Assembly (NCBI GenBank): GCA_000743035.1
Contig: CP008939.1
Coordinates: 30,001-62,000, forward strand
Length of the DNA: 32,000 nucleotides
Direction: 5' to 3'
From: Candidatus Paracaedimonas acanthamoebae
GTDB taxonomy: Bacteria > Pseudomonadota > Alphaproteobacteria > Caedimonadales > Caedimonadaceae
Numbering within the stretch: the first letter of the stretch is position 1; each line of letters starts with the position of its first letter. The notes under the pieces are model-generated. The model worked only from the letters and a program-made list of their open reading frames with translations. It had not been told where the DNA came from and made no database searches. This document shows positions 5,636 to 31,408 of this stretch, piece by piece. The position numbers and the translations under genes are program-made.

Positions 5636-5856
5636 TGTCTGGTGCTTTGCGACTAAAACTTGAGAAGCTTAAAAGGGAATCCGGTGCGAAATAATAACTT
5701 TTATTCCGGAGCTGCCTCCGCAACTGTAAACGGCGAATGTTTCATTCAATATGCCACTGAAGCAATCTGCTTTGGGAAGGTCGAATGAAATGTAATGACC
5801 CGTAAGTCAGGAGACCTGCCGACAAACTAATAACAAACATCGGGCGGGGTGCACCG
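5636..5856 (+). promoter_or_regulatory. Cobalamin (B12) riboswitch
   Basis: Conserved core blocks appear in canonical order: AAAAGGGAATCCGGTGCGAAA (5671-5691), CCGGAGCTGCCTCCGCAACTGTAA (5706-5729), GCCACTG (5753-5759), GGGAAGG (5774-5780) and the B12 box AGTCAGGAGACCTGCC (5805-5820). A possible P1 pairs GGTGC (5641-5645) with GCACC (5851-5855). Confidence 0.8.
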
Positions 5857-5928: not shown

Positions 5929-7854
5929 ATGCTGACAAAAGCATACGATTTTGACCTTAATGGTCATCTGATTAGCTACGATCCTACGCGTAGAATTATT
6001 CCATTTCCTGAAACACAAGAACAGAAGCCACTTTATCGTAAATCAGCAGAGCCACCAATTAAAAAGGCTAAAGTGGAAATTTCGCAACTAACGCTTGATT
6101 ATAAGCGTGATGCCCTCTTAACCAATTTTGGTAAAGCGACCCTTGATGATCGTTACTTACTGGAAGGCGAGAATTATCAGCAGATGTTTGCGCGTGTGGC
6201 ATGCACGTATACCAATAATGTTCAGCATGCACAACGACTGTATGATTACATTTCTCGTCTATGGTTTATGCCTGCAACACCAATCCTTTCTAATGGTGGT
6301 GCTAAACGAGGTTTGCCGATTTCCTGTTTTCTCAATACTGTAAGTGATTCATTGGATGGCATTGTTACAACTTGGAATGAAAATGTATTGTTAGCTTCTA
6401 ATGGTGGAGGAGTAGGAACTTATTGGGGATTTGTGCGCGGTGTGGGAGAATCAGTAGGCCGTGCTGGGAAGACATCAGGGATTATTCCTTTTATTCGCGT
6501 CATGGATTCTTTAACATTGGCAATTGCACAAGGAAGCCTACGTCGTGGCTCAGCAGCGGTATATCTTGATATTCATCATCCAGAAATCGAGGAGTTCTTA
6601 GAAATCCGTAAGCCTTCAGGTGATTTCAACCGCAAAAGCTTGAACCTACATCATGGTATTAATATTACCGATGAATTCATGGAAGCTGTAAAGCATGATA
6701 CAGAATTCGGTCTACGAAGTCCGAAATCTCAAGAAGTACTGCGCAAGGTCAACGCCCGCCAGCTTTTCCAGAAAATTGTGGAAATGCGCCTGCAAACTGG
6801 TGAACCCTATTTAATTTATATCGATACAGCTAATAAATCCATGCCTAAACATCAGCGCGAGTTGGGACTCAAAGTACGCATGAGCAATTTGTGCAGTGAA
6901 ATCTTGTTACCTACCGGCCCGGATCATTTAGGCAATGATCGCACCGCTGTTTGCTGTCTTTCATCGCTTAATGCTGAGACCTGGGATGAATGGTGCAATA
7001 ACGAAATGATTATAGAGGATGTACTACGGTTTCTCGATAATGTACTGCAAGAGTTCATTGATACTGCCCCTGATGGCATGGCACGTGCTAAATATGCCGC
7101 CATGCGCGAGCGCTCTGTTGGGTTAGGTTTAATGGGGTTTCATTCTTTCTTACAAAGTAAGGGTATTCAGTTTGAAAGCGCAATGGCTAAAAGCTGGAAT
7201 TTAAAGATATTTCGCCATATTCGCCGCTTAGCTGATGCTGCATCAGTCACATTGGCTGAGGAACGCGGCGCTTGTCCGGATGCAGCTGAGCGTAATATTA
7301 ATGCGCGTTTTAGCCATAAACTTGCCATTGCGCCTACAGCCTCAATCAGTATCATCTGTGGTGGCACAAGTGCTTGCATTGAACCAATCCCAGCGAATAT
7401 CTATAATCATAAAACGTTAGCTGGGAACTTTGTAGTCAAGAATGTCTACCTTGAGAGATTGCTAGAGCAAAAAGGTATTAATAATGATGCCATTTGGCAA
7501 TCAATTGTTGAAAATGAAGGCTCAGTACAACACCTTATACAACTTTCACAAGATGAAAAAGATGTATATAAAACGGCTTTTGAGATTGATCAACGTTGGG
7601 TAGTAGAATTGGCAGGAGATCGTACTCCATATATTTGCCAGGGACAGTCTATCAACCTGTTTTTGCCTGCCGATGCTGATAAATGGGATTTGCTTATGTT
7701 GCATTGGATGGCATGGGAGAAAGGCGTAAAAAGTCTTTATTATTGTCGCTCTAAGTCTATTCAACGTGCAGAATATGCGGGGGGTGAAGGTAAAGAAACC
7801 AAGCAACTTAAAACAAAACGTACTGACTATGAGGAGTGTTTAGCATGTCAGTAA
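5929..7854 (+). CDS. nrdA: Ribonucleotide-diphosphate reductase alpha subunit, class I, without an N-terminal ATP-cone
   Basis: 641 aa. Motifs include PISCFL, the catalytic NLCSEILLP, TAVCCLSSLN and a C-terminal redox pair (CLACQ). The N-terminal ~60 aa show no VxKRDG-type ATP-cone signature. Confidence 0.9.
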   Translation: MLTKAYDFDLNGHLISYDPTRRIIPFPETQEQKPLYRKSAEPPIKKAKVEISQLTLDYKRDALLTNFGKATLDDRYLLEGENYQQMFARVACTYTNNVQHAQRLYDYISRLWFMPATPILSNGGAKRGLPISCFLNTVSDSLDGIVTTWNENVLLASNGGGVGTYWGFVRGVGESVGRAGKTSGIIPFIRVMDSLTLAIAQGSLRRGSAAVYLDIHHPEIEEFLEIRKPSGDFNRKSLNLHHGINITDEFMEAVKHDTEFGLRSPKSQEVLRKVNARQLFQKIVEMRLQTGEPYLIYIDTANKSMPKHQRELGLKVRMSNLCSEILLPTGPDHLGNDRTAVCCLSSLNAETWDEWCNNEMIIEDVLRFLDNVLQEFIDTAPDGMARAKYAAMRERSVGLGLMGFHSFLQSKGIQFESAMAKSWNLKIFRHIRRLADAASVTLAEERGACPDAAERNINARFSHKLAIAPTASISIICGGTSACIEPIPANIYNHKTLAGNFVVKNVYLERLLEQKGINNDAIWQSIVENEGSVQHLIQLSQDEKDVYKTAFEIDQRWVVELAGDRTPYICQGQSINLFLPADADKWDLLMLHWMAWEKGVKSLYYCRSKSIQRAEYAGGEGKETKQLKTKRTDYEECLACQ

Positions 7855-8933
7855 ATTATTCCAATCAAGATCCTCGCAAACTTCAGGGCAAAGGTATTGT
7901 TGGACTGCTTGAAACATCTGGCTCATATAACATCGAACGCTACCCTTGGGCATATTCAGCATGGAAGCGCCAGCAACAAATTCATTGGATGGGTGAAGAG
8001 GTCCCGCTGGGAGAAGATATTAAAGATTGGAATGGAAAGGACCTTACTGAAAGTGAACGTAATTTACTTACGCAGATTTTTCGCTTTTTTACTCAATCTG
8101 ATATTGAGGTGAGTGATAATTACTTTAAGCGTTACATTCCTATTTTTCAGCCGCTAGAAGTGCAAATGATGATGGCAGCATTCACTAATATGGAAACTGT
8201 GCATATTGATGCATATGCATTATTACTTAAAACGCTGGGTATGCCGCAAGTTGAGTTTGAAGTCTTTCATAATTATGCTGCAATGCGTGCAAAAGCAGAT
8301 TATATGAAAACCTTTGGTATAGGTACTTGCTCTGATGTGGCGCGCACACTTGCCATGTTTGGGGCATTTACAGAAGGTATGTCCTTATTCGCTAGTTTTG
8401 CGATGTTGATGAATTTCCCACGTTTTAATAAAATGAAGGGTATGGGGCAGATCGTTTCATGGTCAGTGCGTGATGAATCACTCCATTGTGAATCAGTTAT
8501 TCGCCTATATCATGAGTGGGAAAATGAAACTGGGTCAGTCACAAAATCGGTTGCTGCTGATATTACAGATGTTGGTAAAATGATGGTAGGGCTGGAAGAC
8601 AAGTTTATTGAACTTGCTTTTGAACTAGGAGGTATTGAGGGCATGGCGGCAAAAGATATTCAATCTTATGTGAGATACATTGCCGATTGGCGACTTACAC
8701 AACTTAAGCTCACACCATGCTATGGTTATTTTACCGGCACAGCAGGTGAATATAAGCAAACAAAAGAACACCCTCTTCCATGGTTAAGTGCTATGCTCAA
8801 CGGCGTAGAACATGCCAATTTTTTTGAAGCCCGCGCAACAGAGTATTCCAAGGCAGCAACAAAAGGTGAATGGCATGGTGATGATGGCGTATGGGCAGTA
8901 TTTGACAGCTTGCAGAAAAAAGATGCCGCATAG
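7845..8933 (+). CDS. nrdB: Ribonucleotide-diphosphate reductase beta subunit (radical tyrosine present)
   Basis: Metal and radical motif METVHIDAY (ExxH...Y) plus SLFASFAMLMNF and RDESLHCE. Preferred start is the ATG at 7845, 8 nt after GAGGAG (7831-7836), overlapping the nrdA stop. The ORF track starts at GTG 7836. Confidence 0.9.
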   Translation: MSVNYSNQDPRKLQGKGIVGLLETSGSYNIERYPWAYSAWKRQQQIHWMGEEVPLGEDIKDWNGKDLTESERNLLTQIFRFFTQSDIEVSDNYFKRYIPIFQPLEVQMMMAAFTNMETVHIDAYALLLKTLGMPQVEFEVFHNYAAMRAKADYMKTFGIGTCSDVARTLAMFGAFTEGMSLFASFAMLMNFPRFNKMKGMGQIVSWSVRDESLHCESVIRLYHEWENETGSVTKSVAADITDVGKMMVGLEDKFIELAFELGGIEGMAAKDIQSYVRYIADWRLTQLKLTPCYGYFTGTAGEYKQTKEHPLPWLSAMLNGVEHANFFEARATEYSKAATKGEWHGDDGVWAVFDSLQKKDAA

Positions 8934-12438: not shown

Positions 12439-12456
12439 TGATCTTGCTACAAAAAT

Positions 12457-13332
12457 TTAGACATTGTGAACTGAGATGGTTTGATTTTTGTAATGATTGT
12501 ATTCCCACTGATTTGGACTTTGATAGTTGAGTGTCGAGTGCCTCCTTTTAGAGTTATAAAATGTGAATATGTATTCAAAGATATCGGTTTTTGCTTCTTC
12601 TAAAGTTTTATAGTTCTTAAAATAGACATGCTCTGTTTTAAGCGTATGAAAGAAGCTCTCCATTGCAGCATTGTCATAAGCACATCCTGTTTTTCCATGA
12701 CTCAGTTTTATTCCATGAGTTTGAGCTATTTCATAAAGGTTATTGCTTGTATATTGGCTCCCCATATCAGAATGATGAATAAGCCCTGAAGGAGGTCTCC
12801 TTAATAAGAGAGCTTGATTAAGTGCTGCTAAAATTAAAGAACTTCTCATGTGATCACTCAAAGCCATTCCCACCACTTTTCGAGAGAATAGATCAAGAAT
12901 AATAGCCAGATAAGCCCAGGTTCTATTGATGGCAATAAAAGTAATATCTGCGGCCCAAATTCTATTAGGAAGAGGAGAATAAAAATTCTGCTGAACGAGA
13001 TCCTGGGTTGGACGAGTGATATTTTCTGAACGTTTTGTTGTTTTAACAAACTTCCTATACATCTTGGCTTGGATATCATTCTTCTGCATCAATCGAGCGA
13101 CTTTAACTCGAGAACAAAAAGTTCCCTGAGCACAAAGTTCTGCATGGATCCGAGGACTGCCATAAGTTTCTCGGCTCTCCTCAAAAATAGTCCTCATTCT
13201 TTTAACAGTCTCAGTGTTCTCCAGTTCTCTCTTGCTGGGACTCCTTTTAATAAAATCGTAATACCCACTGCGAGAAACCCCTAAGACTTGCGCCATCTGA
13301 TCCAAGGAAAATAAAGTGGTATGATGCTTCAT
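12457..13332 (-). CDS. IS3-family transposase OrfB (DDE integrase core), copy A
   Basis: 291 aa: YGSPRIHAEL...RIWAADITFI...HHSDMGSQYTS...DNAAMESFFHTLKTE (rve-type DDE). Confidence 0.85.
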   Translation of the reverse strand: MKHHTTLFSLDQMAQVLGVSRSGYYDFIKRSPSKRELENTETVKRMRTIFEESRETYGSPRIHAELCAQGTFCSRVKVARLMQKNDIQAKMYRKFVKTTKRSENITRPTQDLVQQNFYSPLPNRIWAADITFIAINRTWAYLAIILDLFSRKVVGMALSDHMRSSLILAALNQALLLRRPPSGLIHHSDMGSQYTSNNLYEIAQTHGIKLSHGKTGCAYDNAAMESFFHTLKTEHVYFKNYKTLEEAKTDIFEYIFTFYNSKRRHSTLNYQSPNQWEYNHYKNQTISVHNV

Positions 13333-13380
13333 GAATTCGTACCTTTGCCTCGGGGTTCGGAGAAGATGGCAACTGCTTTC

Positions 13381-14748
13381 CTAAGAAACTCCCTGTACCA
13401 AGTCCTGCATTTTATTCTCTTGCAATATATAACCTAAAGCAGCAGCTCGCTTTGATAAGTTATCAAGAACCCGCTTTTGATATCGTGCCTCATAGTAATT
13501 GGCACCTGGATCAACATATTGCATTCCATAACGCAGAGCATTAAAAAATAATACTGCCATTTTTCTAGCTGTTGCAGTAATTGCCTTTGATTTACCAATG
13601 CGAGCCGAGAGTCGTCTATAAAACGCACCAAGAGCCGTATTTGTCTTTCCAATTGTTACAGCAGCCAATCTTAATGCTGCTGCCGCACGACTTGAGGAAC
13701 GCCGTGTTCGTGATGATAATACTTTCCCTCCTGATACCTTATTCCCTGGAGAAAGACATAGCCAAGAAGTAAAGTGCTTGCTGCTCGGCCAGCGAGACAT
13801 ATCAGTGCCACATTCTGATATTAATTTTAAGGCTAATGAAGGTCCAACACCGTGTATTTGTGTTAAGTCCATTCCTAATGCTTGGTAAAGGGATGCTCTT
13901 ACATCAAAGCTTAAGCTATTAGGTTGTTTAGTGCGATGCCTGGCTTTGGGTAGAGGTTGATCAGGCAACTTATTATCTTTTCCAAGCAAGCTTAATGTCT
14001 CTTCTATTCGACGATCACACTCATTAATTTTTTGTGTGTAATAATCGAATAATTCAACAGCTTGAGTTAAAGAAAACAAATGCTCTTCTTGATAATTACC
14101 CTTTAAGGATTCCTCAATAGTTTTAATGGATTCCTTACAACGTATGTCTCTATGTTCTGCTAATACAGCAGGGCAACGTTCACCATTCATAATCGCACGA
14201 ATGATCTTCATGCCTGTGGCTCCCGTTATATCCGATACGACATGATGCAACTGTAAGTTCATTTGCATTAAAGCTTTTTGCATATGCTGGATATGAGAGG
14301 CTCTGAATTCAAGCATACGTTCACGTTGTCTAATATAAGCACGTAGCACAGTAATTTGTTTTTCTGGTCTGAAGCTAGCACGTAACAAACCAAATTGATG
14401 TAACCGTTGAATCCATTGCGCATCATTGACGTCTGTTTTACGTCCAGGAACATTTTTAGCTTCTCGTGGATTAACTAAAAATACCTCAAAACCATAATTC
14501 TCTAAGATCTCAAAAGCAGGAATCCAATAAATACCTGTGGATTCCATAGCAATGCTGGTGACCTCACAGCTTTTAAGCCATTTTGCCATAGCATGTAAAT
14601 CTGTGGTAAAACTTTGAAACGTACGAACTGGTTCTTTTGCTTTATCACTCCCTACAGCAACAACGTGAAACTTAGCACCAATATCAATCCCAGCAGCATT
14701 TTGATGAATAATTGGCATACTGGATTGTCTGTTAGATTGAGTCATCAC
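13381..14748 (-). CDS. IS110-family (DEDD) transposase, copy A
   Basis: AAGIDIGAKFHVVAV, ESTGIYW and QIHGVGPSLALKLISECG (Transposase_20-like). The likely start is the ATG at 14745, 6 nt after GAGG. Confidence 0.85.
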   Translation of the reverse strand: MMTQSNRQSSMPIIHQNAAGIDIGAKFHVVAVGSDKAKEPVRTFQSFTTDLHAMAKWLKSCEVTSIAMESTGIYWIPAFEILENYGFEVFLVNPREAKNVPGRKTDVNDAQWIQRLHQFGLLRASFRPEKQITVLRAYIRQRERMLEFRASHIQHMQKALMQMNLQLHHVVSDITGATGMKIIRAIMNGERCPAVLAEHRDIRCKESIKTIEESLKGNYQEEHLFSLTQAVELFDYYTQKINECDRRIEETLSLLGKDNKLPDQPLPKARHRTKQPNSLSFDVRASLYQALGMDLTQIHGVGPSLALKLISECGTDMSRWPSSKHFTSWLCLSPGNKVSGGKVLSSRTRRSSSRAAAALRLAAVTIGKTNTALGAFYRRLSARIGKSKAITATARKMAVLFFNALRYGMQYVDPGANYYEARYQKRVLDNLSKRAAALGYILQENKMQDLVQGVS

Positions 14749-14978
14749 TTACCTCTTCTCCTTGTTTATCTATAGAATCAAAGAGCAGGGTAACGAATAA
14801 ATCACTTTCCTAAACGGGGTTTGTACCTCCAATGCCGGGTTCGTTGTACTCCCTGGACCATGTTTTTTAACGGGGTAATCCACCAATAAGCAGACGGCCG
14901 CTCTCTTTGATAGCTCAACTTTAGCAGTTAACGAGCGCGAGTTTCTATTTATTAGGGAAAGGGGTGCCATTTAGGTGG
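14749..14978 (-). ncRNA. Candidate IS110 bridge-RNA-type non-coding left end, copy A
   Basis: 230-nt non-coding region between the element end and the transposase start. See copy B (20594-20823) for the sequence observations. Confidence 0.35.
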
Positions 14979-15226
14979 TTTTTTAAGATATCTCGCTCCT
15001 GGCGAACAAGATAAAGCTCCCGCTTAAGCGCTCTTAATTCTTCCTCAACAACATGGCCACTGCCAGGAAAACTTCTCTCTCCCTCACGCCGGTATTGTTT
15101 AATCCAGTGCCCTAAACTGGCACGCGAAATCCCTAAATCTAAAGCGATCTTCTCAATGCTCTTGTCATTACTCAAATAAACTTTAACCGCATTAATTTTA
15201 AATTCTTTATCGTATTTCTGGGTCAT
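14945..15226 (-). pseudogene. IS3-family OrfA (HTH), 3' end replaced by read-through into IS110, copy A
   Basis: MTQKYDKEFKINAVKVYL...ISRASLGHWIKQYR...LKRELYLVRQERDILK, followed by foreign codons. AAGGAG precedes the ATG at 15226. Confidence 0.8.
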
Positions 15227-15369
15227 GTTCTCTCCTTTCAATAACATTAACCCATCTCGGTTCCTTGTGTCCGCTTTATTGTAGCAAGATCACAAAATTT
15301 GAAAATCCCTATATTTCATTAGCTTAATTATAATCTTACCTCAAAGTTGCAACACAACCAACTCATCAA

Positions 15370-20218: not shown

Positions 20219-20345
20219 TTCAACATCAATTATAAAAATGATGATCCTTATGCTTAATTTAAGAAATCTGTCAAAGGTGTGATCTTGCTACAATAAAGCG
20301 GACACAAGGAACCGAGATGGGTTAATGTTATTGAAAGGAGAGAAC

Positions 20346-20627
20346 ATGACCCAGAAATACGATAAAGAATTTAAAATTAATGCGGTTAAAGTTTATTTGA
20401 GTAATGACAAGAGCATTGAGAAGATCGCTTTAGATTTAGGGATTTCGCGTGCCAGTTTAGGGCACTGGATTAAACAATACCGGCGTGAGGGAGAGAGAAG
20501 TTTTCCTGGCAGTGGCCATGTTGTTGAGGAAGAATTAAGAGCGCTTAAGCGGGAGCTTTATCTTGTTCGCCAGGAGCGAGATATCTTAAAAAACCACCTA
20601 AATGGCACCCCTTTCCCTAATAAATAG
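20346..20627 (+). pseudogene. IS3-family OrfA disrupted at its frameshift site, copy B
   Basis: AAGGAG then the ATG at 20346. OrfA homology ends at ...ERDILK (TTA AAA AA at 20586-20593). The displaced OrfA tail KAVAIFSEPRGKGTNS* resumes at 22193. Confidence 0.8.
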
Positions 20628-20823
20628 AAACTCGCGCTCGTTAACTGCTAAAGTTGAGCTATCAAAGAGAGCGGCCGTCTGCTTATTGGTGGATTACCCC
20701 GTTAAAAAACATGGTCCAGGGAGTACAACGAACCCGGCATTGGAGGTACAAACCCCGTTTAGGAAAGTGATTTATTCGTTACCCTGCTCTTTGATTCTAT
20801 AGATAAACAAGGAGAAGAGGTAA
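20594..20823 (+). ncRNA. Candidate bridge-RNA-type non-coding left end of the IS110-family element, copy B
   Basis: 230 nt with no credible CDS (the 66-aa track ORF has no support). It is relatively GC-rich and rich in self-complementarity, for example CCTAAATGG (20597-20605) with CCGTTTAGG (20755-20763). It contains short matches to the element end and to both flanks (see findings). Confidence 0.35.
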
Positions 20824-22191
20824 GTGATGACTCAATCTAACAGACAATCCAGTATGCCAATTATTCATCAAAATGCTGCTGGGATTGATATTGGTGCTAA
20901 GTTTCACGTTGTTGCTGTAGGGAGTGATAAAGCAAAAGAACCAGTTCGTACGTTTCAAAGTTTTACCACAGATTTACATGCTATGGCAAAATGGCTTAAA
21001 AGCTGTGAGGTCACCAGCATTGCTATGGAATCCACAGGTATTTATTGGATTCCTGCTTTTGAGATCTTAGAGAATTATGGTTTTGAGGTATTTTTAGTTA
21101 ATCCACGAGAAGCTAAAAATGTTCCTGGACGTAAAACAGACGTCAATGATGCGCAATGGATTCAACGGTTACATCAATTTGGTTTGTTACGTGCTAGCTT
21201 CAGACCAGAAAAACAAATTACTGTGCTACGTGCTTATATTAGACAACGTGAACGTATGCTTGAATTCAGAGCCTCTCATATCCAGCATATGCAAAAAGCT
21301 TTAATGCAAATGAACTTACAGTTGCATCATGTCGTATCGGATATAACGGGAGCCACAGGCATGAAGATCATTCGTGCGATTATGAATGGTGAACGTTGCC
21401 CTGCTGTATTAGCAGAACATAGAGACATACGTTGTAAGGAATCCATTAAAACTATTGAGGAATCCTTAAAGGGTAATTATCAAGAAGAGCATTTGTTTTC
21501 TTTAACTCAAGCTGTTGAATTATTCGATTATTACACACAAAAAATTAATGAGTGTGATCGTCGAATAGAAGAGACATTAAGCTTGCTTGGAAAAGATAAT
21601 AAGTTGCCTGATCAACCTCTACCCAAAGCCAGGCATCGCACTAAACAACCTAATAGCTTAAGCTTTGATGTAAGAGCATCCCTTTACCAAGCATTAGGAA
21701 TGGACTTAACACAAATACACGGTGTTGGACCTTCATTAGCCTTAAAATTAATATCAGAATGTGGCACTGATATGTCTCGCTGGCCGAGCAGCAAGCACTT
21801 TACTTCTTGGCTATGTCTTTCTCCAGGGAATAAGGTATCAGGAGGGAAAGTATTATCATCACGAACACGGCGTTCCTCAAGTCGTGCGGCAGCAGCATTA
21901 AGATTGGCTGCTGTAACAATTGGAAAGACAAATACGGCTCTTGGTGCGTTTTATAGACGACTCTCGGCTCGCATTGGTAAATCAAAGGCAATTACTGCAA
22001 CAGCTAGAAAAATGGCAGTATTATTTTTTAATGCTCTGCGTTATGGAATGCAATATGTTGATCCAGGTGCCAATTACTATGAGGCACGATATCAAAAGCG
22101 GGTTCTTGATAACTTATCAAAGCGAGCTGCTGCTTTAGGTTATATATTGCAAGAGAATAAAATGCAGGACTTGGTACAGGGAGTTTCTTAG
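20824..22191 (+). CDS. IS110-family (DEDD) transposase, copy B
   Basis: Identical translation to copy A. The likely start is the ATG at 20827, after GGAGAAGAGG. Confidence 0.85.
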   Translation: MMTQSNRQSSMPIIHQNAAGIDIGAKFHVVAVGSDKAKEPVRTFQSFTTDLHAMAKWLKSCEVTSIAMESTGIYWIPAFEILENYGFEVFLVNPREAKNVPGRKTDVNDAQWIQRLHQFGLLRASFRPEKQITVLRAYIRQRERMLEFRASHIQHMQKALMQMNLQLHHVVSDITGATGMKIIRAIMNGERCPAVLAEHRDIRCKESIKTIEESLKGNYQEEHLFSLTQAVELFDYYTQKINECDRRIEETLSLLGKDNKLPDQPLPKARHRTKQPNSLSFDVRASLYQALGMDLTQIHGVGPSLALKLISECGTDMSRWPSSKHFTSWLCLSPGNKVSGGKVLSSRTRRSSSRAAAALRLAAVTIGKTNTALGAFYRRLSARIGKSKAITATARKMAVLFFNALRYGMQYVDPGANYYEARYQKRVLDNLSKRAAALGYILQENKMQDLVQGVS

Positions 22192-22239
22192 GAAAGCAGT
22201 TGCCATCTTCTCCGAACCCCGAGGCAAAGGTACGAATTC

Positions 22240-23115
22240 ATGAAGCATCATACCACTTTATTTTCCTTGGATCAGATGGCGCAAGTCTTAGGGGTTTCTC
22301 GCAGTGGGTATTACGATTTTATTAAAAGGAGTCCCAGCAAGAGAGAACTGGAGAACACTGAGACTGTTAAAAGAATGAGGACTATTTTTGAGGAGAGCCG
22401 AGAAACTTATGGCAGTCCTCGGATCCATGCAGAACTTTGTGCTCAGGGAACTTTTTGTTCTCGAGTTAAAGTCGCTCGATTGATGCAGAAGAATGATATC
22501 CAAGCCAAGATGTATAGGAAGTTTGTTAAAACAACAAAACGTTCAGAAAATATCACTCGTCCAACCCAGGATCTCGTTCAGCAGAATTTTTATTCTCCTC
22601 TTCCTAATAGAATTTGGGCCGCAGATATTACTTTTATTGCCATCAATAGAACCTGGGCTTATCTGGCTATTATTCTTGATCTATTCTCTCGAAAAGTGGT
22701 GGGAATGGCTTTGAGTGATCACATGAGAAGTTCTTTAATTTTAGCAGCACTTAATCAAGCTCTCTTATTAAGGAGACCTCCTTCAGGGCTTATTCATCAT
22801 TCTGATATGGGGAGCCAATATACAAGCAATAACCTTTATGAAATAGCTCAAACTCATGGAATAAAACTGAGTCATGGAAAAACAGGATGTGCTTATGACA
22901 ATGCTGCAATGGAGAGCTTCTTTCATACGCTTAAAACAGAGCATGTCTATTTTAAGAACTATAAAACTTTAGAAGAAGCAAAAACCGATATCTTTGAATA
23001 CATATTCACATTTTATAACTCTAAAAGGAGGCACTCGACACTCAACTATCAAAGTCCAAATCAGTGGGAATACAATCATTACAAAAATCAAACCATCTCA
23101 GTTCACAATGTCTAA
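22240..23115 (+). CDS. IS3-family transposase OrfB, copy B
   Basis: Identical translation to copy A. Its ATG overlaps the orfA-tail TGA (ATGA at 22240-22243). It is in the -1 frame relative to the orfA tail. Confidence 0.85.
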   Translation: MKHHTTLFSLDQMAQVLGVSRSGYYDFIKRSPSKRELENTETVKRMRTIFEESRETYGSPRIHAELCAQGTFCSRVKVARLMQKNDIQAKMYRKFVKTTKRSENITRPTQDLVQQNFYSPLPNRIWAADITFIAINRTWAYLAIILDLFSRKVVGMALSDHMRSSLILAALNQALLLRRPPSGLIHHSDMGSQYTSNNLYEIAQTHGIKLSHGKTGCAYDNAAMESFFHTLKTEHVYFKNYKTLEEAKTDIFEYIFTFYNSKRRHSTLNYQSPNQWEYNHYKNQTISVHNV

Positions 23116-23166
23116 ATTTTTGTAGCAAGATCAGTTCAGAGACAGAGGAAAGCACATAAGCTCTCA

Positions 23167-24319: not shown

Positions 24320-24589
24320 CTATTCTTTTAAATGTTGTTTTTTCTCGATTAGTTTAATTCGTCGCTCGAGGTACCACACCGCCTTTCGTAAGTCTTTAAC
24401 TTCGTCATGCTTACGACCAGCTCGAGAAATATATTTGAGAGCACAAGCTAAATGATGATTTAAATTCCAGTCCTCAACTATACTAATAGGTTCTATTGTT
24501 CTCCCTTCTATGTAATGCTTTGGGGATTCAATTTCTGCATCTTGGTCGTCTTTTGCGGGGAGTTTTATAAGGTATAAATTCTCAGTCAT
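24320..24589 (-). CDS. DUF3310-like (phage SaV-like) small protein
   Basis: PKHYIEG...IEPISIVEDWNL..HLACALKYISRAGRKHDEVKDLRKAVWYLERRI matches the HY...KY..R.g.K...DL.KA..YL signature. The ATG at 24589 overlaps the rep1 TGA (ATGA). The track start is 24595. Confidence 0.55.
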   Translation of the reverse strand: MTENLYLIKLPAKDDQDAEIESPKHYIEGRTIEPISIVEDWNLNHHLACALKYISRAGRKHDEVKDLRKAVWYLERRIKLIEKKQHLKE

Positions 24590-26001
24590 GAGCATGCTCT
24601 CATAAAGGGTTGATTTAAATATTCTGTATATCTCTTCCCTGACAAAGACCCAGCAGGATTTAACCTACTGGGGTTAGTTAAGGGAGAGATTTGAGGAACA
24701 TCTTGTTCCTCTCTATTTGATGCTTGAAAGGCATCAAAACTTAATTGTGTTGAGGAGATAGAAGGAGAGTTATTGGGGGCCTCTCCTTCTATCAACTTTG
24801 GCCTTAGGAGGGGGTGGCCAAAGTTTTGGGGGATGTCTATTTGAAGATGCTTAATGGGATGACCTAAAGCTTCTTCTAAGGCTGATAGAATTTGAGCTTT
24901 TAAGTTCTTGGTGATCCAGCCCCTTGCAAACAGGTTGGAAACTTGTAAACAAACTTCTTGAGAAGTGAGAGAGGCGATATCGATCTCTAAGAGCCATTGG
25001 CGAACACTAAAGACACTTATCTTTTCAATCAGTGATAAACACACTTTCTTCCACAAAGGATGATGGGAAGAAGAGAGAATCTCTTGGCGTAATAATTCTT
25101 CTTTTTCTGCTTCGAGAAGAAAGGTGATACGATCTCCTAAAGTAAACTGACCCGCTTCAATATTTTGGTAAGTATCAGCTTTAATTGCCCAGGTGAGCCA
25201 AGGTTTTTGGAAGTTCTTACCACTCGCCTCTCCCATCAAGAATTTATAGGAGGCAATCTTCCAGCAATAAGATTTCCAATTAGTAAGACAAGAGCCACAA
25301 AGGCTTTGAAATGATCTATAAAGGCTCAAGATTAAAGAAGGGGTTAACTGGCTGACCTCAAGAGAGCCAATCTCTTCCATCCAGATTTCTTTCATTTTAT
25401 TGGCTATGTTTTTTTCTTCTGCACTTCCCAATGAGGAAGAGGTAGGAGAAAGAGAAATATCTTTTATACTCTCTGTGTATAATCTCTTATCTATATTGTT
25501 TGCTAATTTTTTAACATTCGAAGGTCCATTTTTGACGTTCGAATGTTGTGAACTTAACATTCGGGAGTTATGCGGGTTTTGAGGTAATGTAAAATCACTT
25601 AAAGGATAGCCAAGTGCAAATAAGCTTTCCTGTAGTTTTACCAGGTTCAGCCTATATTTGGTTGTCTTGTCCCATTTATTATCATCAAGATATGCCTCTT
25701 CGATAACCTCAAGGTCGACAAGGTTTTTTAAAACGGTGCGCATTGTTTGACGAGAAACTCCAAGCATTGTTTCATCAGCTAGATCTTGAGCTGTTTTAAT
25801 GATCCATCCATGTCTAAGATCAACATTACACTCTGGATTGCGGTTATGTTCTTCTTGAAGAAATCTATCAAAATCATGGACACGTTTTGTCCAATAAATG
25901 AGCTGATGCAATACAACAGCAACCTTATAGTCTTGTGTTAAAGCCACAAGATCTTTGAAAATAACTGACTCCATAATAGGACGCACAGTATTAGATTGCA
26001 T
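24586..26001 (-). CDS. Plasmid/phage-type replication initiator-like protein (Rep paralog 1)
   Basis: N-terminal winged-helix-like region (VVLHQLIYWTKRV...GWIIKTAQDLADETMLGVSRQTMRTVLKNLVDLEVIE) and a Ser-rich linker. A central block is shared with Rep2 (IWMEEIG...YCWKIASYKFLMGE...WAIK...IEAGQFTLGDR). The C-terminus is DnaA-N-terminal-like (HPLWKKVCLSLIEKI...VRQWL...). Confidence 0.55.
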   Translation of the reverse strand: MQSNTVRPIMESVIFKDLVALTQDYKVAVVLHQLIYWTKRVHDFDRFLQEEHNRNPECNVDLRHGWIIKTAQDLADETMLGVSRQTMRTVLKNLVDLEVIEEAYLDDNKWDKTTKYRLNLVKLQESLFALGYPLSDFTLPQNPHNSRMLSSQHSNVKNGPSNVKKLANNIDKRLYTESIKDISLSPTSSSLGSAEEKNIANKMKEIWMEEIGSLEVSQLTPSLILSLYRSFQSLCGSCLTNWKSYCWKIASYKFLMGEASGKNFQKPWLTWAIKADTYQNIEAGQFTLGDRITFLLEAEKEELLRQEILSSSHHPLWKKVCLSLIEKISVFSVRQWLLEIDIASLTSQEVCLQVSNLFARGWITKNLKAQILSALEEALGHPIKHLQIDIPQNFGHPLLRPKLIEGEAPNNSPSISSTQLSFDAFQASNREEQDVPQISPLTNPSRLNPAGSLSGKRYTEYLNQPFMRACS

Positions 26002-26599: not shown

Positions 26600-27499
26600 T
26601 CATTTGCGTTTGTACTTAATATATGGGTATGTTTTAATAATTTTAAAGGGTAGCATTAGAATTATGTTGCTTAAAGTGATGAGTACACTGGCATATAATG
26701 TGTTTTTTGATGGAAATTCTCTCCAAATTGTCCATCCCATTAACATAGAAATAGGAAGCATTAAGTAACTTATTAATGATATTGTAGTCAAATTATTAAT
26801 TCTTAAACCATACGTGTATAAAAAACTTGCAACAATATGTATAATGGCCATAAAAGAAAAAATGGTTAGTTCGTGTAAGTTGACTTTAATTTTACTATAA
26901 TCTATGAAAATTAAGGATATACCTATACAACATAAACTATAATAAAACATAATCGAGAATATTGTTTCTGATACGGGCATTTTTTTAAATACTAAAACAG
27001 CTAAGGATATACAGAAAGCTGCTCCTATAGCGTATAAACCATGAACGCTTAAAACTTCATCATTTGGCCTAAAAGCTATATAAATTCCTACAATACACAT
27101 AATAAATGAAATCATTTGTTGATTTGTAAGTTTTTCTTTTAAAAATATTATGCCTAGAATTGTCATAAATATTGGATTTAAAAAATACAAGTATTTATAA
27201 GAATATAACTGTAATCCTGCTAAAGCTTTTGTTGCAAATATTAAGCTAGTTGCTGAAAAAAAAGATCGAAGCAAATGCATTTTAAGGTTTTTGGTCTTAA
27301 ATAGCGCTATTTTTTTTAATATGAATGCTGATGGTGCTAAAAATATAATTAATAAAATGCTTCTATAAAGCAATATTTCATAAGTTGTATATGTTTCGGT
27401 TGATAACTTGAGCAAACTTTCAGACAAGCAAAATAAGATGCTTCCTGAAATAAGTGAAATGTATTGAAAATAGCTACTATTAATTAATTTATTTAACAT
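26600..27499 (-). CDS. EamA/DMT-superfamily transporter
   Basis: 299 aa, about 10 hydrophobic helices in two halves. Divergent from the LysR gene. Confidence 0.7.
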   Translation of the reverse strand: MLNKLINSSYFQYISLISGSILFCLSESLLKLSTETYTTYEILLYRSILLIIFLAPSAFILKKIALFKTKNLKMHLLRSFFSATSLIFATKALAGLQLYSYKYLYFLNPIFMTILGIIFLKEKLTNQQMISFIMCIVGIYIAFRPNDEVLSVHGLYAIGAAFCISLAVLVFKKMPVSETIFSIMFYYSLCCIGISLIFIDYSKIKVNLHELTIFSFMAIIHIVASFLYTYGLRINNLTTISLISYLMLPISMLMGWTIWREFPSKNTLYASVLITLSNIILMLPFKIIKTYPYIKYKRK

Positions 27500-27644
27500 T
27501 ATGAGTTACCCATATGTAATAATTTTAAATTGTGAAAGAACAATTTTCATTGCTACTTCAATAATAACATTATAAATATCAAATATAAGAAAAAATTTTC
27601 TAAAATAAGAGATACATTTTACTGGATGAGGAAAAAAACATCCC

Positions 27645-28562
27645 ATGAGCCCAATGAAATTTAATATTCCTAACAATTTAGATTGGGAGTTACTTAAACG
27701 TTTTAATATTTGTACTCATTCTTCCACATTTGCAGAGGCAGCTAAGAAAATCAAAACTAGCCAGGGTGCTTTAAATAGGCAACTTGACACATTAGAAAAT
27801 GAACTTGGAAAAAAGTTATTTTTAAGAACAGCTAAATACCGTTCTATGGAATTAACTCCTGATGGTAAGGATTTGAAAAATATTGTTGATCAAGTTTTTG
27901 ATATAATATCAAAAAAGATTACAAGAAAAATACCCTCAACTTTAAATCAAGAAAGAAAAAAAGTACTAAAAATAATATCTACCCCAGGTTTATCTACAAC
28001 TTTACTCCCTAATGCTCTTTCCGAATATGTTCATTTTAATAAAGAGATCCGCATTGAATTAAGTGCTCAAGTACCACCAAAAAAATTAGATGTTGGAGAA
28101 GTTATCATAAGAAATGATTTTCTTCCTCAAAATAACCTTAAATTTGTTAAATTATGTTCACTATCAATGAGTTTTTATGCATCTTCTTCTTACTTAAGTA
28201 CCCAAGGGGTTCCATCTTCTTTTGAAGAATTAACAGAACACAGCATTTTAACTACACATTATTCTAATATTTCAAGTACCGATAAATATGCTATAAGCCA
28301 AAAAAAATCAATTATTATTGAGCCATTGTTTCAAGCTGACTATATTGATTTTCTTGTAGAAATGGCTTATAGAGGCCATGGTATTTTATCCTTGCCTGAT
28401 CTTCACCCAGCAACAAGAAATCTTATTAAAATAGATTCAATTCCTGCTCAGAATGAAGAAATTCAAGCAGCTTTTCTTGATATAGCTGAACAAGATTCAA
28501 GTATTTATAAGTTTATTAATTATTTAACCACCTATTTAGAAAGAAATAATCATGGAAACTGA
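27645..28562 (+). CDS. LysR-family transcriptional regulator
   Basis: N-terminal HTH (LLKRFNICTHSSTFAEAAKKIKTSQGALNRQLDTLENELGKKLFLR) followed by a ~200-aa substrate-binding-type domain. Confidence 0.75.
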   Translation: MSPMKFNIPNNLDWELLKRFNICTHSSTFAEAAKKIKTSQGALNRQLDTLENELGKKLFLRTAKYRSMELTPDGKDLKNIVDQVFDIISKKITRKIPSTLNQERKKVLKIISTPGLSTTLLPNALSEYVHFNKEIRIELSAQVPPKKLDVGEVIIRNDFLPQNNLKFVKLCSLSMSFYASSSYLSTQGVPSSFEELTEHSILTTHYSNISSTDKYAISQKKSIIIEPLFQADYIDFLVEMAYRGHGILSLPDLHPATRNLIKIDSIPAQNEEIQAAFLDIAEQDSSIYKFINYLTTYLERNNHGN

Positions 28563-28635
28563 GATAATATATGAGAAGACCACACCGATAGAAAATTTTG
28601 AAAATTTAACTGATGACTGGTATGCTCCTTGGTAA
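28552..28635 (+). CDS. Mini-ORF A: 27-aa candidate precursor or signal peptide METEIIYEKTTPIENFENLTDDWYAPW
   Basis: The ATG at 28552 overlaps the LysR stop by 11 nt. Stop TAA at 28633-28635. It is a paralog of mini-ORF B, sharing P-(x)-I-E-x-hydrophobic...E...(D/N)-D-W-Y-x-x-W-stop. It is below the 60-aa ORF-track cutoff. No strong SD. Confidence 0.4.
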   Translation: METEIIYEKTTPIENFENLTDDWYAPW

Positions 28636-28751
28636 ATGATGAGGTATTAGTACCAAACCATCAAGCTACAAGAAGTTTAGAAAAGATTACAACAATACTG
28701 TTCCAAACCATGGACACTCTTATTAGATATTTAAATGTTGCGGGAACAGGG

Positions 28752-28781
28752 TTCAATAATTTTCAATTTTATTGAATTTTT
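28752..28781 (+). terminator. Weak AT-rich hairpin plus T5 between the two mini-ORFs (possible attenuator)
   Basis: TTCAATAA (28752-28759) pairs with TTATTGAA (28769-28776), with a 9-nt loop, then TTTTT (28777-28781). Confidence 0.25.
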
Positions 28782-28810
28782 ACTCAAATTTTTAAAGGAT
28801 AAAAATAACC

Positions 28811-28900
28811 ATGACCTCAAAGACAAGTTTAGTTAATGAATTACCTCAAATAGAAGAAGTTCTCGAAAGCACGATAAATGATTGGTATATAACTTGGTAA
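28811..28900 (+). CDS. Mini-ORF B: 29-aa candidate precursor or signal peptide MTSKTSLVNELPQIEEVLESTINDWYITW
   Basis: AAGGAT lies 10 nt upstream of the ATG at 28811. Stop TAA at 28898-28900, only 7 nt before the oxygenase GTG. The stop region also supplies the oxygenase SD (TAAGG). Confidence 0.45.
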   Translation: MTSKTSLVNELPQIEEVLESTINDWYITW

Positions 28901-28907
28901 GGTCTAA

Positions 28908-29651
28908 GTGTTAAAAATAACTCAGGAAGGCCCAGGATTCATTGTATGGGATGATTTTCTAAGTAAAGAAAATCATCGGCTTGTATGGAACTATATTCAG
29001 AGCGAAACTCTAGAATTTGTACATCAAAAAAAATGGGTTAAAGCATTTCGATTAACTGATGGAGAGCCTTTATGGGGGCCTCCTTACCTTTCTGATCCTT
29101 ATACCCCAGACATAAAAAGTATTGTATATCCTACTAAAAAAGGAATCGACCTTTTTATCTCTGAACTTAAAAATTTAGCACCTCATTGCGAGCATATTAT
29201 TGGTAAACAAGGGCAAGACTGGGCTTATTTTTTTGCACGTGCGTATATTTATCCTAAAGGTACGGGATTATCTTGGCATAGGGATAATGAAAACAGTGCA
29301 CAAGGGGCTTTTGTTTATTATGCACACCAGGAATGGGATCCTCAATGGGGCGGAGAATTTTTAATATCTTCTTATGAAACACAAAAGTTAAAATACCCTG
29401 AATCAGAACTTTATGGTGGTGAAAAGAAATACTTAGGGTCACATTTAGATAATACCTTTGAAAAAGAAACCTTATTAAGTTCAGGAATAGGGACTTATAT
29501 TATGCCTAAGCCAAATAGGCTTATAATAATAACTTCTGGTATTATTCATTGTATTAAAAAGGTAGAAGAAGCAGCTGGAAATAAAGTTAGAGCTTCAATT
29601 ACTGGTTTTTTTCAAGATCCTGCAATGCTTTTAAAGAAAAGTGAAAATTGA
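28908..29651 (+). CDS. 2-oxoglutarate/Fe(II)-dependent oxygenase (prolyl-4-hydroxylase-like fold)
   Basis: Facial triad H124-R-D126 (SWHRDN) and H214 (SGIIHCI). R228-A-S230 is a 2OG-binding RxS. WGGEF and PNRLIII strands are typical of the family. GTG start 5 nt after AAGG. Confidence 0.75.
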   Translation: MLKITQEGPGFIVWDDFLSKENHRLVWNYIQSETLEFVHQKKWVKAFRLTDGEPLWGPPYLSDPYTPDIKSIVYPTKKGIDLFISELKNLAPHCEHIIGKQGQDWAYFFARAYIYPKGTGLSWHRDNENSAQGAFVYYAHQEWDPQWGGEFLISSYETQKLKYPESELYGGEKKYLGSHLDNTFEKETLLSSGIGTYIMPKPNRLIIITSGIIHCIKKVEEAAGNKVRASITGFFQDPAMLLKKSEN

Positions 29652-30095
29652 TTTATGTTTTAAATCATAAATTGGTGGGGGTGAGTTTCCTCTTTAAGCA
29701 TCCCTGTTGGTTATTTTAGTATCTAAGGCTTTCTCCCCAATTCGCCTTAAATAACTTTTTGGAGACTATGGCAGCCCCCTGCTGCTCTTACTAAATGTAG
29801 TATATAAGAATCATTTTAAAAATATCAAGTAAAAAGTTGTTGATTTCATTATGTTTTATCTCATTTGTTGCAATAAAAGATTTATATCTCATTTTTTAAA
29901 AAATTAATGTATCGTTAATCAATTAGTAAGGTATTGTTAAGATTATATTAATAGTTTTTTAATAAATTCATGGTTGAATTCCTCAGGGTTTATATACTCA
30001 TCAAAAGTAAATTTATCCCTAATCTCAGCATGGAACTCTTTATCCTTAAAAATAGCAAACATTACATTGTTCTCTTTTTTCCTTCATCCTATCTC

Positions 30096-31364
30096 TCAAA
30101 CAGTAAAGCTAAGATAATTAATTTTTGTGCTATTAATCTCTTCTAAAGCTCTTTGAATTTCTTTCTCATACTTTTTTTGGAGATAATCTTTATAAAATCT
30201 GCTTGAGGCTTTAAGCTCAGCTATATGTTCATTGGAATCATTGTTTCCTAGATAAGTTAAGTCTAACTCTTGGAAATATTTAGCGGCATTGCCCCCTACC
30301 CTTTCAGTTAAAAGCAAGCATGCTTTAATCCATAAAGGATGTCTTGGAAGTTCTAAGAATTCTTGCCTAGTTTCCTGAATAACTCTCTCAGCCTCTTTTT
30401 GTTGTTGGTCTTTGCTTAAAACAACTTCTCGATCCCCCAGGGTAAAATCCCCTGCCTGAATTCTTTCAAAGCTTTCATGCTGGATGGCCCATGAGAGCTT
30501 AGCCTTAAAATTTGTATTCTTCTTCTCTCCCATTAGGAACTTGGAAGAAGCAATTTGGCGGCAGTACGTCCGCCAAAGGTCAAAGGAACTTTCAAAGGTT
30601 CTCTTGAAAGCGTTGTTCAGATTTGTGATGAGAGTATTTGAAAGAAAGCTAACATCTAACCATCCAATTTCTTCCATCCAAATATTTTTCATTTCATTTG
30701 CAACCTTCTCCTTCTCAACATTTTGTAATGAGAGAGAGGTTGGATAGAGAGAAGAAGATGAAGTACTTTCTGTAAAATCATTATTCTTCCCCCCTATAGT
30801 CCCCCCATAGGAATGGCTGTTTGTGTCGTTACTGGAACGGTTGCTCAAAAGCACCTCTTCCCCCTTCCCTTTAGCAACTCTCTTAGGACTAAGCTTAGAA
30901 TTTTCCTCTTTTTGGGCCTTATTCTCAAGGTTCAAAGGCTTATTAGCTGATTTCTTTTCTGCTAATGCTTCTTTAGGTTGGTCGGGAGTCTTATTACGAA
31001 CAAAAAAGGTTCGATTGGTTTTTCTGTCATGATAACTTGCATAGAGTTTACCTTGAAACTTATCTTCAGCTTTCATGAATTCTGTTTTGCTTTTATAGCG
31101 GATGCCAATAGTATCAAAAGCTGCATTAAAGACACGGCGCGAAAATCCTAGTTCCTCAGTCCAGCTGTCTCCTAATCGATATAAGCGATGTTTGCAAGGC
31201 TCTAAGAATTTATAGAAGCCTTGAGGATATTTAGAAAACCAATAATCAAGTTGGCCTCTTATAAGACCTAAATATGGTGAGCCTAGCTCAGGCTCAGGAG
31301 TACGATAACATAAAATCACAAAGGATTTTTTAGGGCACAAAATCCTATTAGGTAAAACACTCAT
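30096..31364 (-). CDS. Replication initiator-like protein (Rep paralog 2)
   Basis: The central and C-terminal blocks are homologous to Rep1 (IWMEEIGWLDVS..., YCRQIASSKFLMGE, LSWAIQHESFERIQAGDFTLGDR, HPLWIKACLLLTERV). The N-terminal ~150 aa are different. Preferred start is the ATG at 31364, 7 nt after AGGAG. The track start is 31379. Confidence 0.55.
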   Translation of the reverse strand: MSVLPNRILCPKKSFVILCYRTPEPELGSPYLGLIRGQLDYWFSKYPQGFYKFLEPCKHRLYRLGDSWTEELGFSRRVFNAAFDTIGIRYKSKTEFMKAEDKFQGKLYASYHDRKTNRTFFVRNKTPDQPKEALAEKKSANKPLNLENKAQKEENSKLSPKRVAKGKGEEVLLSNRSSNDTNSHSYGGTIGGKNNDFTESTSSSSLYPTSLSLQNVEKEKVANEMKNIWMEEIGWLDVSFLSNTLITNLNNAFKRTFESSFDLWRTYCRQIASSKFLMGEKKNTNFKAKLSWAIQHESFERIQAGDFTLGDREVVLSKDQQQKEAERVIQETRQEFLELPRHPLWIKACLLLTERVGGNAAKYFQELDLTYLGNNDSNEHIAELKASSRFYKDYLQKKYEKEIQRALEEINSTKINYLSFTV

Positions 31365-31408
31365 TTGTTTTCTCCTCATGTTGAGGTGCTACAAACAAGC
31401 TTTTCCCG

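Follow-up and report, generated by a model that had tools for sequence, protein, structure and literature searches.

Positions 30,001 to 62,000 of contig CP008939.1 from Candidatus Paracaedimonas acanthamoebae (32,000 nucleotides in all, here called the window) include a compact locus: a gene for an EamA-family transporter and, divergent from it, a lysR regulatory gene, two very short open reading frames (ORFs) encoding peptides A and B, and a gene for a 2-oxoglutarate (2OG) and Fe(II)-dependent oxygenase. Comparative genomics suggests that this locus probably is a cassette akin to those for ribosomally made peptides that are modified post-translationally (RiPPs), and that its family apparently is undescribed. 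Small peptides with the carboxyl-terminal sequence Tyr-x-Pro-Trp (Y-x-P-W) accompany close relatives of the oxygenase, and we judge it fairly likely that they are its substrates. An earlier note on this DNA had proposed a layout for making, modifying, exporting, and sensing a product. That layout is largely supported by the comparisons, but correction is needed as regards an intervening hairpin, how the two peptides arose, and what state they are in.

The neighbourhood comparison advocated in that note was carried out with 80 loci from a species-level genome collection, along with further metagenome contexts fetched around oxygenase homologs. Small ORFs, LysR proteins, and transporters (EamA or others) accompany the oxygenase, and this evidence favours the core idea. 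Homologs were divided into near and more distant groups at about 44-45% identity to the window oxygenase. One to three small Y-x-P-W ORFs lie nearby in 39 of the 40 near loci (at least ~44% identical): 30 of 31 loci from species-level genomes, and all nine further metagenome contexts. Such an ORF is found in none of the 49 loci of more distant homologs (below ~44%). The motif directly precedes the stop codon in 37 of the 39 peptide-bearing loci; the stop is lost in the other two, from Legionella santicrucis (L014) and L. erythra (L025). There the ORF, which ends near 5972, has five extra residues (...DEYMPWLSMEI and ...DEYMPWLSKEI, respectively), and Trp no longer is C-terminal.

Six-frame translation of all fetched loci yielded 90,861 ORF tails, only 54 of which end in Y.[PT]W-stop. 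Because 52 of these 54 adjoin a homolog of the window oxygenase, the small ORFs are not there by chance. The pairing of oxygenase and Y-x-P-W ORF spans four phyla. A metagenome scan with the window oxygenase as the single query returned only near-identical Caedibacter-type loci, which display the ancestral, one-peptide layout. The generic arrangement of a RiPP cassette, a precursor beside its modifying enzyme, thus appears to be present both in the window and in the 39 related loci.

The peptides themselves share a simple plan. Among 23 distinct sequences, Tyr (position -3) and Trp (position 0) are invariant, and the leaders are variable and acidic. Pro occupies position -1, as prolyl hydroxylation would require, in 22 of the 23; the sole exception is peptide B from the window. 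Short acidic peptides with the motif are encoded in alphaproteobacteria, in Legionella, and in a metagenome-assembled genome (MAG) from the Bdellovibrionales. The Caedibacter MAG peptides end in ...INDWYIPW, and other alphaproteobacterial peptides in ...EDWYVPW, ...DEWYAPW, ...DDWYMPW, ...DRFYTPW, ...SLYSPW, ...DMYDPW, or ...EGEWYTPW. About 25 species of Legionella and Fluoribacter, including L. pneumophila, share the form M..YYSNRIDxDEDKDEYMPW, whereas the Bdellovibrionales peptide reads MKQNKKVVEPKEDIKDVYVPW.

The Legionella genes reveal that the peptides are under purifying selection at the protein level. Across 16 distinct alleles, the last nine codons (EDKDEYMPW) are invariant in amino acid sequence, with synonymous variants at six of the nine. 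A perfect Shine-Dalgarno sequence (AAGGAG) precedes the ATG. This selection, together with the division into conserved and variable segments, would be as in RiPP precursors. The peptide genes are uncalled in the records for L. pneumophila and for L085-L087, and called but unnamed in L093-L098. Peptides A and B match no Pfam or NCBIfam family and contain no Nif11 domain.

The Nif11 domain is a recognised RiPP leader, and a distant branch of the family makes use of it. Precursors of 113-122 residues (PF07862; TIGR03798 just under the cut-off) from Corallococcus (L006) and from metagenomes (L097 and L099), along with P0120-P0128, share the invariant tail RLK(A/S)VMQQGR(Y/F)SGYYRPW; the L006 precursor matches PF07862 with E 7e-10. 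They adjoin oxygenase orthologs that are 46-50% identical. The L006 cluster, from Corallococcus carmarthensis, also encodes two B12-radical S-adenosylmethionine (SAM) enzymes, a Rieske oxygenase, and a TylF-type methyltransferase, and gene content is similar in L097 and L099. Nif11-leader precursors with the same carboxyl terminus, encoded beside orthologous oxygenases, argue directly that the short peptides likewise serve as RiPP substrates.

What of the enzyme? The site HxD...H...RxS is intact, as the earlier note had stated: H124-x-D126, H214, and R228-x-S230 are present in the window oxygenase and conserved across homologs. The iron triad (H124, D126, and H214) and the 2OG-binding Arg (R228) are invariant throughout the peptide-linked clade. 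Together with a double-stranded β-helix fold in the structural model (AlphaFold2; pLDDT 96.4, pTM 0.92) and a match to PF13640 above the gathering threshold, these residues place the protein in the 2OG/Fe(II) superfamily. It is 92-94% identical to proteins from Caedibacter MAGs. A Foldseek search of the PDB found almost exclusively peptidyl-prolyl 4-hydroxylases among the best 50 matches, including Pseudomonas PPHD, human PHD2, and Dictyostelium PHD (E ~1e-9, TM 0.55-0.77, identity 14-20%). A profile search of PDB sequences likewise found prolyl 4-hydroxylase (4e-5) and PHD2 (~3e-3). The closest structural and sequence relatives of the oxygenase therefore appear to be peptidyl-prolyl hydroxylases of the PHD (prolyl hydroxylase domain) type, by a similarity that is remote. 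The NCBIfam match to 'FlmC 2OG oxygenase' is weak (27 bits vs a cut-off of 240), and the PADLOC scan for defence systems found nothing beyond a match to its generic 2OG model. Homologs are annotated in their sources only as 'proline hydroxylase', '2OG-Fe(II) oxygenase', or 'hypothetical'.

Together, these results suggest a model for cassette function. A short acidic ribosomal peptide would end in Tyr-x-Pro-Trp-COOH, and the PHD-like oxygenase would recognise and oxidise this terminus. Since the fold and profile of the enzyme are closest to those of peptidyl-prolyl hydroxylases, the simplest guess is that the most likely single reaction is hydroxylation of the invariant Pro. Given the joint invariance of Tyr, Pro, and Trp, oxidation or cross-linking of Tyr and Trp around a Pro turn would fit equally well. 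General peptidases then might trim the peptide to a small carboxyl-terminal fragment, which a small-molecule transporter (EamA in the window) would move across the membrane, presumably outward. LysR, in response to a presumed ligand, would control both the lysR-peptide-oxygenase operon and the divergent transporter gene.

Genes for LysR and for non-homologous small-molecule transporters recur among the relatives, in several different arrangements. A lysR gene lies directly 5' of the peptide gene in the window and in L003, L004, L088/L089, L095, L098, and L101, and in four of these (the window, L003, L088, and L089) the 3' end of lysR either runs into the start of the peptide gene or directly adjoins it. 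The window LysR is 52% identical to the cassette LysR proteins of L088 and L003, and 30-33% identical to those of L004, L093, and L095. The divergent promoter region contains a block, ATTGCTACTT..AATA(A/G)CATTATA, that is conserved in the window, L088, and L089. It forms a dyad that is perfect in L088 and L089 (TGCTA-N9-TAGCA) and reads TGCTA-N9-TAACA in the window. From its sequence and position, this dyad is a candidate LysR box.

Every plasmid-type cassette has an attached transporter gene, but the family varies (EamA, MFS/POT, or MatE). EamA is divergent in the window, L003, and L088-L090, and co-directional in L101; the window EamA is 67% identical to its counterpart in L088 and 50% identical to the one in L003, both of them placed divergently as in the window. 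Permeases similar to MFS/POT are encoded 3' in L004, L093, L094, L095, and L098. They are 21-48% identical among themselves, and that of L098 scores 97 bits, below the cut-off, on the oligopeptide:H+ symporter model. The L096 transporter belongs to the MatE family. Since these all are small-molecule carriers rather than ABC exporters of the bacteriocin type, the final product would be small. On three metagenome plasmids, the cassette is 0.6-2.5 kb or less from the conjugation genes traL, traE, and traK (L095, 9692-10735; L098, 9563-10723; L101, 1172-1833).

The cassettes of the ~25 Legionella and Fluoribacter species are built differently. They form a three-gene unit that encodes a 21-residue peptide (...EDKDEYMPW), the oxygenase, and a soluble protein of 359 residues (L007-L028, L044, L067, and L081-L084), often next to mobile-element genes for ArdA, SocA, SSB, and an integrase. 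The third gene, for a protein of 354-359 residues, lies 3' of the oxygenase gene in all 24 Legionella loci and is recorded on >1000 Legionella contigs; the Bdellovibrionales MAG encodes a homolog that is 33% identical. The Legionella protein has no Pfam or NCBIfam family, no significant fold match, and no sequence match to the PDB chains of the crocagin proteins CgnB and CgnE. It is not homologous to the 389-residue protein encoded in L085, so that the notion of one conserved third gene was rejected.

Other ORFs occur beside the more distant homologs. Those upstream of the oxygenase genes in L050, L051, and L062 (Planctomycetota and a Glaciecola MAG; oxygenase 37-39% identical) have a different, conserved tail, ...SWYRLGHVES(Q/Y/H)(F/I)(H/Y)GH-stop, and end at 5745, 6020, and 6020, respectively; they may represent a second peptide family, paired with a sister clade of the enzyme. 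In L053, L054, and L063 (Aeromonas, Serratia, and Biostraticola; 32-37% identical), an upstream ORF ending at ~5989-6007 has another conserved tail, ...(A/Y)FLP.W(K/R).(L/M)IE.W(K/N).E.... The comparison covered the last 45 residues of this ORF, which may belong to a longer protein.

The window locus itself proved to be a recombinant of two diverged cassettes. Peptides A and B are paralogs, a relationship unremarked in the earlier note: both have an acidic amino-terminal part and end in D-W-Y-x-x-W-stop. The 175 nt between them align at the DNA level to the 3' end of lysR from L088 and L089, and blastx detects two segments, in different frames, that are 64% and 72% identical to residues 267-324 of the L088 LysR (combined E 2e-15). 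The closest relatives (L088-L090; oxygenase 92-94% identical) encode just one peptide, alongside EamA, LysR, and the oxygenase. Moreover, identity between the window and L088 is unequal across the cassette: 67% for EamA, 52% for LysR, and 92% for the oxygenase. The lysR remnant, the single peptide in close relatives, and these unequal identities together identify the recombination. An EamA-LysR-peptide A module from one lineage was joined, just past the peptide A stop codon, to a truncated-lysR-peptide B-oxygenase module from the Caedibacter lineage. Thus both small ORFs proposed as candidate substrates are present, but the pair stems from recombination.

Peptide B is identical to the L088 and L089 peptides at 18-19 of 29 residues. 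Alignment reveals that the codon for the conserved Pro has changed from CCC to ACT (Thr), and that the Shine-Dalgarno sequence AGGAA, which precedes the peptide ATG in L088, has been lost. With Pro replaced and its ribosome-binding site weakened, peptide B may be degenerating. Peptide A, with its motif intact, probably is the working substrate in the window.

The hairpin between the two peptide genes had been read as an attenuator. It does exist as a fold: the stem (28748-28780) has 12 A-U or G-U pairs and not one G-C pair, is followed by U5, and has a folding energy of -7.5 kcal/mol (z = -3.7 vs shuffled sequences). However, the site lies inside the frameshifted lysR remnant, where the U-run derives from former Glu-Phe-Leu codons (...EFL...). 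A terminator scan did not call it, and predicted no strong terminator anywhere between lysR and the oxygenase gene. Because it lies in dead lysR coding sequence, the hairpin is not a designed attenuator, and this role was rejected for the window. For the family, the attenuator idea is reasonable: most Legionella loci have a stem-loop 3' of the precursor gene, and that in L100 is G+C-rich and resembles a terminator.

Several observations weigh against the peptides as substrates, or against the layout as a whole. The 8-kb contig of one oxygenase homolog that is 57% identical (L042) encodes no peptide. Similarity to PHD enzymes is remote, at 14-20% identity and TM 0.55-0.6, and PF13640 enzymes also act on small molecules. 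In accord with the earlier note, the ORF list and domain scans reveal no leader-removing protease in the window cassette; neither do they reveal a leader-recognition domain (RiPP recognition element, RRE), and an immunity gene also is absent. (Proteases and RREs are common in RiPP clusters, but are not obligatory.) In the window, the peptide with direct coupling to the oxygenase is peptide B, which lacks the Pro that prolyl hydroxylation needs. Neither a transporter nor LysR belongs to the Legionella and Bdellovibrionales cassettes, which have the 354-359-residue protein in their place; export and sensing thus are not universal. Finally, LysR together with EamA or POT also is typical of small-molecule uptake or efflux.

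Some of these same points speak for a small-molecule pathway, in which the oxygenase acts on a free amino acid or metabolite, the EamA or MFS protein transports it, and LysR senses it; the peptides then would be accessory proteins (partner, inhibitor, or chaperone) or unrelated. PF13640 includes small-molecule hydroxylases, PolD is among the structural matches to the oxygenase, LysR with EamA, POT, or MatE is a common layout for metabolite transport, and neither the missing protease and RRE nor the peptide-free L042 would be surprising. We nevertheless consider such a pathway unlikely. It leaves unexplained why invariance is confined to exactly the last four residues of the peptides, and why RiPP precursors with a Nif11 leader, encoded in larger clusters, terminate in these very residues. 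Furthermore, the top fold and profile matches overwhelmingly are peptide- or protein-prolyl hydroxylases, and a tandem arrangement of peptides whose leaders vary is typical of precursors. It is very improbable that the small ORFs are cis-acting leader peptides, functionless as products, that tune oxygenase expression through TnaC-like arrest at ...PW-stop or through attenuation. Certainly the ORF often lies immediately 5' of the oxygenase gene (7-45 nt away, or overlapping its start), a hairpin follows it in Legionella and L100, and the conserved segment is the part that would occupy the ribosomal exit tunnel. But the precursor gene is on the strand opposite to the oxygenase gene in L006 and L099, and in L093 the peptide genes, three in tandem, also are on the other strand, at a distance of 2 kb and beyond a HipAB insertion. 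Two tandem copies are present in L094, L095, and L098; an EamA gene intervenes between peptide and oxygenase genes in L101; peptide A is ~270 nt and one ORF removed from the oxygenase gene; and Nif11-domain proteins of 113-122 residues share the carboxyl terminus. Opposite-strand, distant, tandem, and gene-separated copies argue against a cis-acting leader, and are normal for RiPP precursors.

Alternatively, the family may be real but the window cassette a dead product of recombination: an operon broken by the frameshifted lysR fragment, with peptide A parted from its own, lost oxygenase and peptide B bereft of its Pro and of the proximal Shine-Dalgarno sequence, in IS-rich surroundings. This also is decidedly unlikely, since EamA, LysR, peptide A, and the oxygenase are full-length; the oxygenase retains both high identity to its relatives and all catalytic residues; peptide A retains the complete motif; and no strong terminator is predicted from lysR to the oxygenase gene. 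We therefore favour the peptides as oxygenase substrates. Conceivably, although improbably, the trimmed and modified Y-x-P-W fragment is a diffusible peptide signal among Gram-negative, host-associated bacteria, exported or re-imported by EamA or POT and sensed by LysR, through which plasmids and integrative elements gauge donor density or the host-cell environment. If so, this would be peptide quorum sensing of a kind not known in Proteobacteria, and present in Legionella pneumophila.

All five parts of the locus lie where the earlier note had placed them, as judged from the ORF list, the sequence, and Pfam domains (see the table). The peptide A ATG begins 8 nt before the lysR TGA, for an overlap of 11 nt. 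Equally, the peptide B stop (TAA, 28898-28900), a Shine-Dalgarno-like sequence (TAAGG), and the oxygenase GTG, 7 nt past that stop, are packed within 10 nt as described.

Coordinates of the cassette, its flanking genes, and homologous features in related loci
Feature	Sequence	Position	Strand	Remarks
EamA/DMT-family transporter, 299 residues	window	26600-27499	-	PF00892, E 3e-21; putative cassette exporter
Divergent EamA/LysR promoter region	window	27500-27644		candidate LysR box TGCTA-N9-TAACA, ~27551-27569
LysR-type transcription regulator, 305 residues	window	27645-28562	+	HTH_1 and LysR_substrate domains
Peptide A, 27 residues, ...DDWYAPW-stop	window	28552-28635	+	METEIIYEKTTPIENFENLTDDWYAPW; full Y-x-P-W C-terminal motif
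lysR remnant, frameshifted	window	28659-28833	+	last ~58 codons of second, Caedibacter-type gene; DNA alignment, blastx
Weak A-U/G-U hairpin and U5	window	28748-28785	+	inside lysR remnant; folding energy vs shuffles
Peptide B, 29 residues, ...NDWYITW-stop	window	28811-28900	+	MTSKTSLVNELPQIEEVLESTINDWYITW; ortholog of single Caedibacter-type peptide
2OG/Fe(II) oxygenase, 247 residues, GTG start	window	28908-29651	+	PF13640 and PF13661
Flanking rep-like ORFs	window	24586-26001 and 30096-31379		DnaA_N domain
Legionella unit, peptide	L083	7892-7957		example of three-gene unit
Legionella unit, oxygenase	L083	8001-8762
Legionella unit, 359-residue protein	L083	8825-9904
Homolog of 359-residue protein, Bdellovibrionales MAG	L100	4017-5081		33% identical; 3' of oxygenase

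The cassette had been placed between two rep genes on a replicon rich in insertion sequences (IS). Indeed, ORFs with DnaA_N domains flank it, and the window contains IS110, IS3, and IS6 transposases. The two rep-like genes are paralogs of one another, and are homologous to an ~420-residue gene 3' of the oxygenase gene on Caedibacter MAG contigs L001 and L002. Since the oxygenase gene adjoins a rep homolog there too, the arrangement of cassette beside rep is conserved. Many cassettes are borne on plasmids or mobile elements, with markers that include ParA, DnaA_N rep, Tra, Mob, ArdA, and integrase. A BLASTN search of PLSDB plasmids with the locus found no match. Cassette G+C content (26600-29651) is 29.5%, compared to 36.3% for the whole window, which fits recent acquisition or a different origin.

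Elsewhere in the window, two blocks of 2,856 nt (12439-15294 and 20278-23133) are 100% identical and mutually inverted. Each contains an IS110-type transposase, an IS3-type integrase ORF, and a 100-residue ORF; the 4,983 nt between them contain an 882-residue ORF that matches no Pfam family, together with a transposase of the IS6 type. This layout resembles that of a composite transposon. Genes for the large and small subunits of ribonucleotide reductase (5929-8933) also are present on this otherwise IS-rich, plasmid-like replicon.

If the peptides are oxygenase substrates, the family would constitute a new and very small class of RiPP, with a precursor of ~20-35 residues and one PHD-like 2OG oxygenase, whose carboxyl-terminal Tyr-x-Pro-Trp signature is readily mined. 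Its hosts are ~25 Legionella species, alphaproteobacteria that resemble amoeba symbionts, Bdellovibrionales, and myxobacteria (in elaborated form), host-associated bacteria from which few natural products have been described. A peptide product that is mobile and linked to both regulator and exporter could serve as a signal, as a toxin, or as an effector directed at the host.

No family in Pfam, NCBIfam, or PADLOC covers the peptides or the cassette, and a full-text literature search, whose incomplete coverage leaves room for a prior description, found none of the motif or cassette. (A preprint on tiarin and trifolitoxin mentions Legionella, but concerns the unrelated TfxB/C system.) The RiPP kind of system already is known; what appears to be new within it is the defining pair of enzyme and core motif.

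Several known systems resemble the cassette in part. Pantocin A, from the paaPABC cluster, is a very small RiPP-derived product made from few residues of a 30-residue precursor; PaaB is predicted to be a 2OG/Fe(II) oxygenase, and PaaC is the exporter. Its class-defining enzyme is the ThiF-like PaaA, and its core is an internal Glu-Glu-Asn. Unlike the window cassette, it has neither a Y-x-P-W motif nor LysR. The Nif11-leader RiPP precursors (TIGR03798, PF07862) overlap the family in its distant branch, which combines a Nif11 leader with Y-x-P-W, whereas the window peptides have 27-29 residues and an unstructured acidic leader. Pyrroloquinoline quinone (PQQ) and mycofactocin also derive from tiny precursors (PqqA and MftA) with invariant aromatic residues near the carboxyl terminus, and only those residues reach the product. 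Both require radical SAM enzymes as well as peptide chaperones and proteases of their own, all of which are absent from the window cassette.

The peptidyl-prolyl hydroxylases PHD2, Pseudomonas PPHD (acting on EF-Tu), and Dictyostelium PHD (acting on Skp1) provide the best fold and profile matches, share the HxD...H triad and Arg, and hydroxylate Pro inside a peptide. HIF degrons moreover are acidic peptides around the target Pro. However, at 14-20% identity these enzymes are remote, they act on large proteins of regulation or translation that are encoded elsewhere rather than by a dedicated mini-gene alongside, and they have no transporter or LysR partner. Leader peptides of the TnaC type share a short ORF just 5' of the regulated gene and a conserved Pro near the stop, but the layout that they require is broken in several relatives by opposite-strand genes, tandem arrays, and Nif11 fusions.

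Crocagin offers a parallel in chemistry. CgnC, an Fe(II)/2-oxoglutarate dioxygenase, β-oxidises the carboxyl-terminal Tyr and Trp of the CgnA precursor (PMC10070186). As proposed here, the precursor is short and ribosomal, its core is at the extreme carboxyl terminus and contains Tyr and Trp (IYW), Fe/2OG oxidation is a key step, and the product is a small, alkaloid-like peptide (PMC10070186). Differences also are evident. Crocagin requires a pair of peptide-binding proteins, CgnB and CgnE, as well as an esterase, CgnD, whereas the window cassette, from the EamA gene up to the rep gene downstream, has no further ORF; basic residues are what the leader of crocagin depends on, whereas the window leaders are acidic; and crocagin has no conserved Pro. 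Nonetheless, CgnC provides a precedent that makes oxidation of Tyr or Trp plausible for the Y-x-P-W peptides.

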